Shown piece after piece: positions 25,372-62,570 of a stretch of DNA of 64,000 nt (within the stretch, counting starts at the first letter, position 1; each line of letters starts with the position of its first letter). A program made the position numbers and the translations under genes. The notes below the pieces were generated by a model. That model did no database searches, was not told the origin of the DNA, and was given only the letters and a program-made list of their open reading frames with translations. Origin of the DNA: Candidatus Collierbacteria bacterium UBA2277 (lineage in GTDB: Bacteria > Patescibacteriota > Microgenomatia > UBA1400 > MFAQ01); contig DDWV01000001.1 in NCBI GenBank assembly GCA_002347045.1, positions 223,381-287,380 on the forward strand, written 5' to 3'.

Positions 25372-25845
25372 ATGAAAAAACTTAATTTTGGGAAGTTATT
25401 TATTTCAATCTCTATCCCCCTAATGGCTGGTTTTTTAGGTTCTTTCTTTACCTCTTCGAGTGTAAAAACATGGTATCTAATCATCAATAAACCCTCATGG
25501 AATCCACCATCTTGGGTGTTTGCGCCAGTTTGGACAACGTTGTTTATCATGATGGGGATATCTTTGTACCTTGTCTGGTCAAGAAAAATTGACAACAAAT
25601 CTCGAGTGGCTTTTAAGATGTTTGCCGTTCAGATGGTTTTGAATGTTTTGTGGTCTGTTTTCTTCTTTGGCATGGGTAATTTCTGGTTGGCTTTTGGAGA
25701 GATACTGGTCTTGTGGGCCTTTATCTTGGCCACCATAGTGTCATTTGCAAAAATAAACAAAACAGCAGCTTGGCTATTAGTGCCGTATATTTTATGGGTA
25801 AGTTTTGCTACCTACTTAAACCTTACAATCGCACTTCTAAACTAG
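25372..25845 (+). CDS. tspO: TspO/MBR family tryptophan-rich sensory protein
   Basis: 'KPSWNPPSWVFAPVWTTLFIMMGIS' and 5 TM helices. It starts 2 nt after the cupin stop. Confidence 0.8.
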   Translation: MKKLNFGKLFISISIPLMAGFLGSFFTSSSVKTWYLIINKPSWNPPSWVFAPVWTTLFIMMGISLYLVWSRKIDNKSRVAFKMFAVQMVLNVLWSVFFFGMGNFWLAFGEILVLWAFILATIVSFAKINKTAAWLLVPYILWVSFATYLNLTIALLN

Positions 25846-27093
25846 GTTTTTTATCTGACCAAAACCAATGCGGTCATGAACATGATTACCTGTGTTTGCC
25901 ATAATCGCAGGTGAGATAACAAAATTTCCCCACCTGTCATTGATGTCATCAATAGCAGATATCAATTTTTCTTTTTGAAGACTGTTGGAGAATAAGTCCA
26001 GCTGGAGAGAAGAACGTTTGGTTAGATTAAAACACGATACGGCTAGATTCCGAACCGGAAGTTTGTAAGGTGAGTGACGCAGAATGTGGTGTGCTGCCTT
26101 GTAAATATCTTGACTGTCAAAAATAGGCTGATAAAAGGTACGACCTTTGTGAAAAAACTGATGATTTCGATAGAGAATTCCCAAATGAACTCCTTTGGCT
26201 TGAAAGTCTGCATGACGCATGCGGAAGCCGACCTTTTCAACTAATTTACTGAGAATAGGAGCTAGATCATCTGGACTAACTAAAAATTTTGGTAAGGAGT
26301 ATGAGTGGCCAAAACTTTTCGTCTCAAAATCGATGTCATCTATCTCCCAACCACGAAGACGAAGAAACCAGTAGTAACCATGGACTGAGTGGAAAGCGGA
26401 ACGAAGTAAGGGGATATCGGCGTAAAAAAAATCTAGGACGGTGTAAATCCCGACACAATTTAGACGAGCAGCATTTTGATGATTGATACCTGTAAGATCT
26501 GTAAGGCTTAACTGTCTAAAAATATCTAAGTAATTGCTTTGATTAATTTCGTCTAAACCATCCGGCTTGTGAAGATTAGAGGCGGTTTTAGCTAGGAAAC
26601 GATTTGGTCCTATACCGATAGAGACAGAAAGATAATCTCCTATTTCTTCTTTAATTCTGAGCTTTATTTCCTTAGAAACAGAAATTAGGCCCTTTTGAAA
26701 GGCAGGCGTGCCTGAAAAGTCCAGAACAAATTCATCTATAGACTTGGGAACAACTCTAGGGGTGTAATTTGTGAGAAGATTTTTAAGTCTCAGATGAATA
26801 GCTCTGTACTTGTCTGAGTCAGGAGTGCGAACGATAAGATTGGGACACAAAAGAAGAGCGTCCTTGATACGCATACCGACCTTAACACCAACAAGCTTGG
26901 CTTCTGTCGAGGCAGCGACTATGCAGCCGTTGGGAGTGTCGTAGGCAGCCACAGCAAGAGGTTTATAACGCAGGAATGGATTTGCTTGCTGTTCTACCGA
27001 AGCAAAACAAGAATTAAGATCGATATGCAATACCGTGCTTGGAGCACGATTGAAGCCGAGGCTAATTGGCGAGTCCATCAGAGATTTCTTCAA
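25837..27093 (-). CDS. Y-family translesion DNA polymerase (DinB/ImuB-like)
   Basis: 'VLHIDLNSCFASVEQQANPFLRYKPLAVA...NGCIVAASTEAK' palm motifs. The likely true start is the ATG at 27078. Confidence 0.8.
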   Translation of the reverse strand: MKKSLMDSPISLGFNRAPSTVLHIDLNSCFASVEQQANPFLRYKPLAVAAYDTPNGCIVAASTEAKLVGVKVGMRIKDALLLCPNLIVRTPDSDKYRAIHLRLKNLLTNYTPRVVPKSIDEFVLDFSGTPAFQKGLISVSKEIKLRIKEEIGDYLSVSIGIGPNRFLAKTASNLHKPDGLDEINQSNYLDIFRQLSLTDLTGINHQNAARLNCVGIYTVLDFFYADIPLLRSAFHSVHGYYWFLRLRGWEIDDIDFETKSFGHSYSLPKFLVSPDDLAPILSKLVEKVGFRMRHADFQAKGVHLGILYRNHQFFHKGRTFYQPIFDSQDIYKAAHHILRHSPYKLPVRNLAVSCFNLTKRSSLQLDLFSNSLQKEKLISAIDDINDRWGNFVISPAIMANTGNHVHDRIGFGQIKNLV

Positions 27094-27322
27094 GTGTCCA
27101 AAATAATGTATCGGTGTCTAACTTGAGACGAAAAAATAGATTCTTGGATGTGACGGAAAATATATGGAAAAGGGTACGGCCTTCACGAATAGTGTGATGC
27201 ATGCCAACTTTGGATATCCGAACCACTTGACCATCCCAAAAAATTTGACGGGGACTAACAGTGTGTTGCCTGTGGTCGTAGACTAACTGAACAGAGACTG
27301 GAGCAGATATTTTTTGAATCAT
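27062..27322 (-). CDS. Small hypothetical protein (86 aa) overlapping and probably co-transcribed with the Y-family polymerase
   Basis: ORF sits immediately downstream of a promoter plus LexA-box-like element. It overlaps the polymerase gene 5' end. No SD. Confidence 0.4.
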   Translation of the reverse strand: MIQKISAPVSVQLVYDHRQHTVSPRQIFWDGQVVRISKVGMHHTIREGRTLFHIFSVTSKNLFFRLKLDTDTLFWTLEEISDGLAN

Positions 27323-27338
27323 ATACCCGAAGAATTAA

Positions 27339-27400
27339 CGAACATATCTTCATTAAACCAAAAATTACCCGAACGGTCAAGGGCCAGTATCTTTGCTACA
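27339..27400 (-). promoter_or_regulatory. Sigma70-like promoter (TTGACC-N17-TTTAAT) with overlapping LexA/Cheo-box-like operator
   Basis: Minus-strand read CCCTTGACCGTTCGGGTAATTTTTGGTTTAATGAAGATATGTTCGTT. TGAAGATATGTTCG matches the Gram-positive SOS box CGAACATATGTTCG at 12 of 14 positions. Confidence 0.4.
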
Positions 27401-27405
27401 AAAAC

Positions 27406-27870
27406 TTAGTTGATATACTTTTGATAGTTGTAGCCATAAAGGGAGATTAGCACCTCTTCAGTATCGTCTTGATTTAATAAAGTAATACCTAGTCGCTTTA
27501 CTACGTTCAATATATTGGGATTAAGACTTTCTGAATTGTTTAAAAGACAGTAGAGTGAGTAATTATTGTCGTCCCCTGCAATCCTATTGCAAGAAACATG
27601 ACCACAGTTTACACAGCGATGAACAATCATAAGCTCACCACTTGTTCTTCCGGTGTATTGATTGACTCTAAGATTTTTAAAAGTTAAACCTAGAGGTATC
27701 ATTCTTGATCCACAAGAAGATTTTCTATCTCCAGGCGTTTTTTGATCTAAATGCCTAGACCACAAACACAAGGGGCAGTGATTTCTATTTTTGGTCCCTA
27801 TGGAAGTATTGGAAACGATGGTGTGACAACTCAGACATCTGAAAGATGCCTGATCCGAGCAAAACCTTTT
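27406..27870 (-). CDS. RNHCP-domain zinc-ribbon protein; no canonical start codon upstream of the conserved motif
   Basis: Stop-to-stop frame translates '...FRCLSCHTIVSNTSIGTKNRNHCPLCLWSRH...HRCVNCGHVSCNRIAGDD'. The first ATG/GTG/TTG is the TTG at 27771, which lies after the RNHCP motif (27772-27786). Confidence 0.5.
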   Translation of the reverse strand, partial: KRFCSDQASFRCLSCHTIVSNTSIGTKNRNHCPLCLWSRHLDQKTPGDRKSSCGSRMIPLGLTFKNLRVNQYTGRTSGELMIVHRCVNCGHVSCNRIAGDDNNYSLYCLLNNSESLNPNILNVVKRLGITLLNQDDTEEVLISLYGYNYQKYIN

Positions 27871-28002
27871 CTATTGTTGTTTTTCAACATCAGAGGAAAT
27901 TTTAACATATATACGGCTTTTGGGCATAATTTGACTGACTAATGTTCCAGCAATCAAGGCATTACTAAACCTCTTTAGCAAAAATCGATTATAGTTATCT
28001 CA

Positions 28003-62203: not shown

Positions 62204-62476
62204 TTACTCTAAACTTATTCTCAATTTACTATCAACAGCGCCTGCGTATTGGACATATCTATTTATACTTGTACTGTGTTCACCAGACTCGAGCCTTGAA
62301 ATGGCTGTCTGTTTTGTGCCGAGAATTTTAGCCACATCTGACTGAGTCATTCCAATTTTTAATCTTTTCTCTATTAGTTGACTAATAAGGTCATATTCTG
62401 GCTTGTTTTTTAGATACTCTGCTTTGACTTTTTTGTCTTTAAAAAGTATTGCCTTAAATTCTTTGTATGTTTTCAT
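62204..62476 (-). CDS. XRE-family helix-turn-helix transcriptional regulator
   Basis: 'IGMTQSDVAKILGTKQTAISRLESGE' HTH_XRE. Confidence 0.7.
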   Translation of the reverse strand: MKTYKEFKAILFKDKKVKAEYLKNKPEYDLISQLIEKRLKIGMTQSDVAKILGTKQTAISRLESGEHSTSINRYVQYAGAVDSKLRISLE

Positions 62477-62525: not shown

Positions 62526-62570
62526 TTCAAATTATGTAGTCTTTTTATTCGGGTATCGTTCGGTCAGGTT

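Follow-up and report, generated by a model that had tools for sequence, protein, structure and literature searches.

Promoter and operon in the window

The stretch of DNA analysed here (contig DDWV01000001.1, Candidatus Collierbacteria bacterium UBA2277) is 64 kb long and is called the window; all window-wide counts and searches reported below cover this stretch. It carries on its minus strand a two-gene operon, in which a small open reading frame (ORF) of 86 aa is followed by an overlapping gene for a Y-family DNA polymerase. In a preliminary description the locus had been laid out as a TTGACC-N17-TTTAAT promoter followed by the sequence TGAAGATATGTTCG, the 86-aa ORF and the overlapping polymerase gene, and every one of these elements was found again. 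The minus strand of the promoter region reads cccTTGACCgttcgggtaatttttggTTTAATgaagatatgttcgttaattcttcgggtatATG, and the features of the operon are the following:

27375-27380, minus strand: -35 hexamer TTGACC (direct reading; CTTGAC invariant in 11 close relatives)
Between TTGACC and TTTAAT, minus strand: promoter spacer of 17 nt (direct reading)
27358-27373, minus strand: operator O1, TTCGGGTAATTTTTGG, proposed LexA site (position weight matrix (PWM) score 23.8, the top score in the window)
27352-27360, minus strand: extended -10 element, TGg and then TTTAAT, with the hexamer at 27352-27357 (direct reading)
27339-27352, minus strand: Cheo-like box TGAAGATATGTTCG, 12 of 14 positions identical to CGAACATATGTTCG, judged to be a chance palindrome
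27327-27342, minus strand: operator O2, TTCGTTAATTCTTCGG, the weaker of the two direct repeats, within the short 5′ leader (PWM score 12.1)
27062-27322, minus strand: predicted 86-aa standalone ImuB-C/DUF6504-like protein, all-beta, with the ATG at 27322 and the stop codon at 27062-27064 (profile comparison)
25837-27078, minus strand: 413-aa DinB-like Y-family DNA polymerase with the ATG at 27078 (Pfam IMS and IMS_C)

The 3′ end of O2 lies 5 nt ahead of the ATG of the small ORF, and the end of the small ORF overlaps the start of the polymerase gene by 17 nt. For comparison, an ortholog set of 57 GTDB loci and additional metagenome copies was used, and the upstream motif count was made over 59 loci.

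The predicted sigma70-like promoter is well supported. Across the aligned promoters of the 11 close relatives CTTGAC is invariant and the GG..AAT of the -10 region is kept, while TTTAAT is preceded by TGg in the style of an extended -10 element. The window promoter was absent from the list of a simple promoter scanner, because position 2 of its -10 hexamer is T and not A.

Conservation of a TTCGG direct repeat

The conserved element at this promoter is a direct repeat, TTCGGGTwwTnTTYGG, in which two TTCGG-like units are placed 11 bp apart. O1, with the pattern TTCGGGT-N4-TTYGG, follows directly after CTTGAC, fills the 17-nt spacer and is invariant in the close relatives. The O2 pattern TTCG-N7-TTCGG likewise shows no variation among 11 relatives from the Woese/Collierbacteria clade, and O2-equivalent sites reach scores of 14.4-21.3 in L011, L013, L014, L016 and L022. 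The PWM was built from 44 distinct motif instances and has an information content of about 22 bits. A motif was called for a locus if a score of at least 14 was reached in the 300 nt that precede the small ORF.

According to this threshold 51 of the 59 loci have the architecture of promoter and repeat ahead of the small ORF, in a position that overlaps the -35/-10 spacer, and in most of these 51 loci TTGAC stands ahead of the repeat. Among the eight loci without a call, the contigs of L026 and L062 are 5′-truncated, L064 is a fragment, and L038 and L042 carry a variant motif with the two units swapped; the remaining three (L054, L056 and L059) belong to the lineages with a palindromic box described below. 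In the window itself there is one strong promoter-associated site in 64 kb. An RNA leader element was rejected as an explanation of the motif, as in many loci the genes are apparently leaderless and it falls within their promoter spacer; an Rfam scan of positions 26900-27900 returned no RNA family.

Genes preceded by the repeat in other genomes

In order to see which other genes follow the same promoter and repeat, JGI metagenome contigs were scanned with the exact pattern TTGAC-N0-2-TTCGGGTWWTNTTYGG. Matches were obtained in at least 120 stretches, and 80 loci with a total of 81 promoter and motif sites were analysed. Among the matches listed, 25 sites precede the small ORF, and most sites are located no more than 60 nt from the start of the downstream ORF, as counted from the listing.

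Canonical LexA genes (PF01726 and PF00717, i.e. LexA_DNA_bind and Peptidase_S24) stand behind the motif in L147, L118 and L149. Their products fall into two lineages with 39% mutual identity, the motif lies in the spacer of the gene's own promoter, and the LexA of L147 corresponds to the annotated Gottesmanbacteria LexA KKU95569.1. In L074 (865-3482) the motif promoter is followed by a zinc-ribbon gene, 22 nt later by recA and then by an ORF that is RecX-like by eye. Furthermore, the motif is located ahead of polY (dinB) without the small ORF in L140 and L093. Among the matches listed there are also ten Bro-N/DinD-like genes, and further motif-preceded genes encode RhuM, LAGLIDADG endonucleases, a Gp49/HigB-type toxin and a C5 methylase; in high-GC contigs the motif precedes a radical-SAM repair-type gene and a gene for an HExxH protein.

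The LexA core regulon consists of the self-regulated lexA, recA and translesion polymerases (PMC8565304). Because the same promoter and repeat precede lexA, recA-recX, dinB and DinD-like genes, the TTCGG repeat is most likely a direct-repeat LexA operator, a putative assignment made by genomic context. According to a listing in PMC7739468, a 2017 study on Patescibacteria belongs to the cases in which LexA has evolved to recognise a direct repeat. A gene for LexA or another S24 peptidase was not found in the window or in the flanks of the direct-repeat loci by tblastn and with a LexA hidden Markov model, and clustering of the ORFs within 5-6 kb of the operon in more than 50 loci yielded no conserved neighbouring regulator.

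Several observations on these matches are added here. The zinc-ribbon gene of L074 is split into two ORFs and its counterpart in L133 encodes 282 aa; the same family stands behind the motif in L115 and L133, and a separate zinc-ribbon family does so in L087 and L138. Contigs L077, L093, L113 and L146, which have a GC content of 0.64-0.68 and are clearly not from the Candidate Phyla Radiation (CPR), contain an identical promoter with the TTCGG repeat, and the genes behind it are of the radical-SAM repair type, dinB, or encode an HExxH protein (ImmA/IrrE-like by eye). Since it occurs in these high-GC non-CPR contigs, the TTCGG operator is not restricted to the CPR. In L118 (5992-7045) the LexA frame runs without a stop codon into an N6/N4 DNA methyltransferase domain, resulting in a product of at least 344 aa that is cut by the contig end; this may be either a real fusion or an assembly or frameshift artefact.

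The 86-aa protein belongs to the ImuB-C/DUF6504 family

The small protein is strongly conserved in orthologous loci. Its homologues form 110 clusters, nearly all of exactly 86 aa and with Woesebacteria, Collierbacteria and Curtissbacteria as plausible names, and a profile search at E<=1e-3 extended the family to 683 representative clusters. The residues G40, H43, G48, L51, H53 and W75 are invariant and R65 is conserved to at least 90%. An AlphaFold2 model with a pLDDT of 93.8 contains seven strands. No fold match to this model was found in the PDB, and a profile search of the PDB sequences was empty as well.

In single-sequence scans the window protein alone gave no Pfam or NCBIfam match. The suggestion that the small partner matches none of UmuD, ImuA or YolD held for both the protein and 32 aligned homologues, none of which had such a Pfam or NCBIfam hit; these three identities were discarded, as no S24 peptidase, YolD or RecA-like domain was detected. 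DUF6504 (PF20114) gave weak matches in 7 of the 32 aligned homologues, and the distant member P0249, for which a homologue search returned four close relatives, passes the PF20114 cut-off. The Gottesmanbacteria orthologue of L065 (L065:4608-4871) scores 26.5 bits on PF20114 at a cut-off of 24.2 and is aligned by the family profile with an hhalign E-value of 2e-25. Moreover, the profile aligns end to end over 81 columns (hhalign probability 95.6%, E 1.2e-8) with an 84-aa ORF of the Geobacter anodireducens plasmid pSD that is located between lexA and a Y-family polymerase gene. Residues 430-500 of the ImuB encoded on pSymA of S. meliloti, followed by the gene for DnaE2, give a sub-threshold match to PF20114 (E 0.0065).

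Standalone ImuB-C proteins of the GSU0042-like type have about 80 residues, are beta-rich, contain a conserved C-terminal Trp and basic residues and lack a catalytic motif; they occur most often with DinB and often with LexA and SRAP (PMC3765255, Aravind et al. 2013). Their tie to the C-terminal domain of bona fide ImuB is also taken from that work (PMC3765255), and standalone ImuB-C with PolY was likewise described by Timinskas and Venclovas (2019) in section 17 (PMC6511836). ImuB-C has been described as a beta-barrel of novel fold in PolY-ImuB-C-RecA complexes (PMC12926913), with which the absence of a PDB fold match agrees. The family of the window shares with the standalone ImuB-C/DUF6504 proteins a sequence similarity that is transitive, a beta architecture of about 80 residues with the Trp, and the linkage to polY. 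As judged from these comparisons, the 86-aa protein is a divergent standalone ImuB-C/DUF6504 protein, a known partner of DinB-like polymerases, and the proposal that it may represent a new accessory subunit gives way to this assignment. A literature search for DUF6504 returned no paper mentioning it.

The polymerase and its linkage to the small ORF

The polymerase matches the Pfam families IMS (1.2e-36) and IMS_C (9.4e-17). Its best NCBIfam match is DNA polymerase IV with 228.5 bits, below the equivalog cut-off of 399, and on these scores it is a predicted member of a DinB-like subgroup rather than a Pol IV equivalog. Its sequence contains the catalytic motifs HIDLNSCFASVE and KSIDEF as well as QLDLF, a canonical clamp motif; an inactive ImuB-like polymerase was rejected on account of the catalytic residues. 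The clamp motif is followed by a conserved tail, LQKEKLISAIDDINDRWGNFVIS, which fits the RecA-NT motif of Y-family polymerases (PMC6511836) and was aligned with RecA residues 6-28 at a P-value of 5e-4 but at a probability of only 31%.

Co-occurrence of the small protein with a Y-family polymerase, proposed earlier as a check, was observed throughout: apart from the fragment L064, every locus with sequence beyond the small ORF has the polymerase gene immediately after it, and the 17-nt overlap is usually kept. SRAP genes are adjacent in L054, L056, L053, L049 and L037, with a partial match in L032, and a lexA-like gene is located upstream of the cassette in L054 and L065-L068. The polymerase gene is broken up into two frames or segments in L007 (4195-5423), the copy on the Geobacter plasmid, and in the CPR loci L032 and L037, which suggests either occasional pseudogenisation or sequencing frameshifts.

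Sister lineages with a palindromic box

In related Microgenomates the cassette is preceded by a different box. In place of the repeat, the promoter spacer of L056 and L059 contains a perfect AGTGAAC-N4-GTTCACT, located about 30 nt ahead of the small ORF. In L054 (9380-9410) the cassette is located behind a lexA-like gene whose promoter has AGTAAAC-N4-GTTTACT, and the lexA-like genes of Gottesmanbacteria and Roizmanbacteria carry a perfect GTGAAC-N4-GTTCAC between TTGACA or TTGACT and TATAAT or TATACT (L065 3785-3810; L069 3960-3990). In three sister lineages an S24 repressor gene is part of the operon; the repressors of the GAAC-box operons (L054, L065 and L069) contain the S24 domain, and their N-terminal domain was not recognised as LexA_DNA_bind. 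Judged by these sites, real GAAC-type boxes exist in the superphylum and not in the lineage of the window, and the same cassette appears under two repressor/operator pairs.

Leaders, additional motif copies and flanking sequences

In many motif-bearing promoters (L073-L152 and also L024, L025, L027 and others) the -10 element ends 6-9 nt before the start codon, which implies leaderless or near-leaderless mRNAs. In the lineage of the window the leader has a length of about 23 nt and contains O2. The Collierbacteria-like loci L015, L019, L020 and L022 have an insertion of about 150 nt between the promoter/operator and the small ORF; its terminal inverted repeats, GTCATTCC...GGAATGAC, are like those of a miniature transposable element. 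Additionally, a reverse-complement motif, TTCGGATAnTnTTTGG, with scores of 19.4-21.5 was found on the minus strand in L027 (~10015), L043 (~10021) and L060 (~10021). About 50 bp separate this copy from the one in the promoter; it falls into codons 1-8 of the small ORF (M-x-Q-x-x-S-E-P/Q), where it may serve as a third operator or simply result from the conservation of the N-terminus.

Outside the operon one further site was recorded in the window:

62548-62563, plus strand: possible second direct-repeat copy TTCGGGTATCGTTCGG (PWM score 20.6, second best in the window)

It has no adjacent -35 or -10 element and lies in a gap of 94 nt that is flanked by two minus-strand genes, one for a methyltransferase and one for an XRE-type helix-turn-helix (HTH) protein. 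The site is located 72-87 nt upstream of this HTH gene, which encodes a 90-aa XRE/HigA-like protein (62204-62476, minus strand), and has the opposite orientation. The HTH gene's own promoter region contains a separate palindrome, TAATATAACA-N5-TGTTATATTA, and a database look-up of the HTH protein returned no record. In L134 and L141 the motif drives Gp49/HigB-type toxin genes.

Next to the operon promoter, on its upstream side, lies a gene (27406-27771, minus strand) for an RNHCP-domain protein (Pfam E 6e-17). As no terminator is predicted between the two, read-through from this gene into the operon is possible; in the close relative L004 a hairpin with a T-run, similar to an intrinsic terminator, is located just upstream of the promoter instead.

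Predicted regulation and alternative explanations

Taken together, the window probably carries a bicistronic, predicted damage-inducible translesion-synthesis operon of the type "standalone ImuB-C plus active PolY" in a Woesebacteria-like genome of the CPR/Microgenomates, with LexA-type control at the TTCGG repeat. A canonical LexA, encoded outside the window and assumed to be present, would bind to O1 in the spacer and to O2 in the leader and thereby block RNA polymerase. Upon formation of RecA filaments on damaged DNA, self-cleavage of LexA would derepress the operon, and the 86-aa protein and the polymerase would be made by coupled translation. The polymerase may then be tethered to the beta clamp and to RecA, with the ImuB-C-like beta protein as the presumed non-catalytic accessory subunit of a PolY-[ImuB-C]-RecA complex. 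The earlier placement of the cassette in the family of SOS-type mutagenesis cassettes is supported by this, as is the idea that promoter and operator overlap and that this promoter controls a small ORF with a translationally coupled Y-family polymerase gene; the part that did not stand is the choice of the Cheo box as that operator.

That choice had been based on the 12 of 14 match between TGAAGATATGTTCG and CGAACATATGTTCG just past the -10 element, and it gains from the related Microgenomates, which place GTGAAC-N4-GTTCAC before lexA-like genes and the same cassette (L054, L056, L059, L065 and L069). Nevertheless, it is regarded as very improbable that LexA acts at the transcription start through a Gram-positive box of the CGAAC-N4-GTTCG type. 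The left half reads GAAG rather than GAAC, and a Cheo match with up to two mismatches is expected 0.12 times per window and was seen in 12 of 100 shuffles, so that the match is no better than chance. Relatives with 93% protein identity have a box that is one base shorter (GAATTATGTTCG), a deletion that breaks the N4 spacing, and in other close relatives two bases are gone or GTTCG is changed to ATTCG. With the left half and its distance to TTCG shifting by 0, 1 or 2 nt (GAAGATATGTTCG, GAA-TTATGTTCG and GAA--AGTATTCG) among the 11 close relatives, the palindrome geometry is not maintained, and in most orthologous loci the best Cheo-like match reaches only 7-9 of 14 positions. The true boxes of the sister lineages sit in the promoter spacer, which is here filled by the TTCGG repeat. 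A search for lexA and for further GAAC-N4-GTTC boxes, the check that had been suggested, gave neither in the window, where an exact GAAC-N4-GTTC does not occur at all; this counts against the Cheo box as well. The CGAAC-N4-GTTCG operator was therefore rejected for its core, its lack of conservation and its chance-level frequency, the lack of conservation by itself already largely refuting it on the alignments. TGAAGATATGTTCG is judged to be a chance palindrome that straddles the T of the -10 element and the first TTCG of O2; its GTTCG half is explained by being the first unit of O2, and this TTCG is the only part of O2 that overlaps the box.

Two further explanations concern the repeat itself. 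It could be an element of promoter architecture only, reflecting a spacer or discriminator preference of RNA polymerase in leaderless genes, with the operon being constitutive. The motif is indeed always fused to TTGAC with the -10 element after it, and many such promoters end 6-16 nt before the start codon. Against this stand about 22 bits of information within a spacer that is normally sequence-neutral, a second copy, O2, that is conserved outside the promoter, a strong enrichment of damage-response rather than housekeeping functions among the downstream genes, and the occurrence of one strong promoter-associated site only in 64 kb, and a purely architectural role therefore has hardly any probability. 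The other possibility is that the repeat is the site of a non-LexA damage regulator, a repressor or an activator, which also controls lexA and recA, while LexA takes no part here. LexA-independent damage regulons do exist in other phyla (PMC8565304, PMC12288472), no lexA is present in the window, and many motif-bearing genes are of the mobile-element type (Bro-N, RhuM, LAGLIDADG, Gp49 toxin and methylases). This explanation is nonetheless considered unlikely: in two lineages as distant as 39% identity the promoter spacer of the canonical lexA gene itself contains the motif, self-regulation being a hallmark of LexA, and the regulon content of lexA, recA and dinB is the LexA core of PMC8565304. 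Furthermore, direct-repeat LexA motifs are documented, for Patescibacteria by citation in PMC7739468, and no candidate regulator is conserved beside the operon.

Several points weigh against LexA control and the ImuB-C assignment as proposed. The window contains neither lexA nor any other S24 gene, a LexA is assumed for the organism, and its binding to the repeat is deduced only from the position of the motif in lexA and recA promoters of other organisms. In the window O2 reaches a score of only 12.1, and the -10 hexamer, TTTAAT, has a T instead of the canonical A as its second base. The 86-aa protein of the window has no Pfam hit of its own, its link to DUF6504/ImuB-C being transitive, and the C-terminus of the single S. 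meliloti ImuB gave no alignment with the family profile in hhalign.

A broader proposal, doubtful and put forward only tentatively, is that the repeat is distinct from the published Patescibacteria motif. In that case canonical LexA, or else a different damage regulator, would use it as a new operator to govern a mobile-element-rich regulon across the CPR and apparently in some high-GC bacteria. Within the Microgenomates the cassette would have switched between two S24 repressors with unrelated operators, the canonical LexA at the TTCGG repeat and a non-canonical repressor, encoded in the operon, at the GTGAAC-N4-GTTCAC palindrome.

If LexA-type control applies, CPR bacteria with their reduced genomes would retain an error-prone polymerase under regulation, in a module of the ImuB-C type, which is poorly understood. 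A large and very divergent branch, comprising the 683 representative clusters, is added to the ImuB-C family, and one cassette under two apparent repressor/operator pairs would offer a natural comparison. As we know of no biochemical function of ImuB-C, the compact two-gene version with its predicted active polymerase could serve as a convenient system to study the function of this domain.

Comparison with known systems

The closest described arrangement outside the superphylum is the Geobacter operon lexA-imuB-C(GSU0042-like)-polY, together with operons of standalone ImuB-C and DinB in general; common to these and the cassette family of the window are a homologous small protein (hhalign E 1.2e-8 to the Geobacter ORF) and the frequent adjacency of SRAP genes. 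The operon of the window differs in having no lexA, in a small protein too divergent for direct detection by Pfam DUF6504, and in its operator, a TTCGG direct repeat as opposed to the Geobacter LexA operator GGTT-N10-AACC (PMC8565304). Within the superphylum, the lexA-like-DUF6504-polY operons of Gottesmanbacteria and Roizmanbacteria (L054 and L065-L068) have an orthologous small protein (E 2e-25), the polymerase and an operator in the spacer, but they encode their own S24 repressor and use the palindromic GTGAAC-N4-GTTCAC box.

The ImuA-ImuB-DnaE2 mutasome is related through the ImuB C-terminal domain, which founds the ImuB-C superfamily, and through its SOS-type regulation, which is predicted for the operon of the window. 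The operon of the window shows neither ImuA nor DnaE2 and encodes ImuB-C as a separate polypeptide; since its Y-family protein keeps the catalytic residues, a second polymerase is not needed. umuDC (Pol V) and the B. subtilis operons yqjX-yqjW and yolD-uvrX also place a small accessory gene ahead of a Y-family polymerase gene; their LexA control has a probable counterpart in the operon of the window, and the RecA-NT motif of their polymerases a tentative one. The small protein of the window is neither an S24 peptidase as UmuD nor YolD-like and has no self-cleavage motif.

With regard to the operator, direct-repeat LexA sites with two units about 11 bp apart over lexA, recA and polymerase promoters are known from Alphaproteobacteria (GTTC-N7-GTTC), Balneolaeota and, as cited in PMC7739468, Patescibacteria; the unit found here is TTCGG(G)T, which may or may not be that of the published Patescibacteria motif. 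Operons of ImuB-C and PolY as well as direct-repeat LexA boxes are thus already documented and current concepts are unchanged, the residual novelty being the exact operator sequence, if unpublished, and the comparison of two repressors. As a whole, the module of the window matches the putative mutasome type "PolY-[ImuB-C]-RecA" (PMC12926913).

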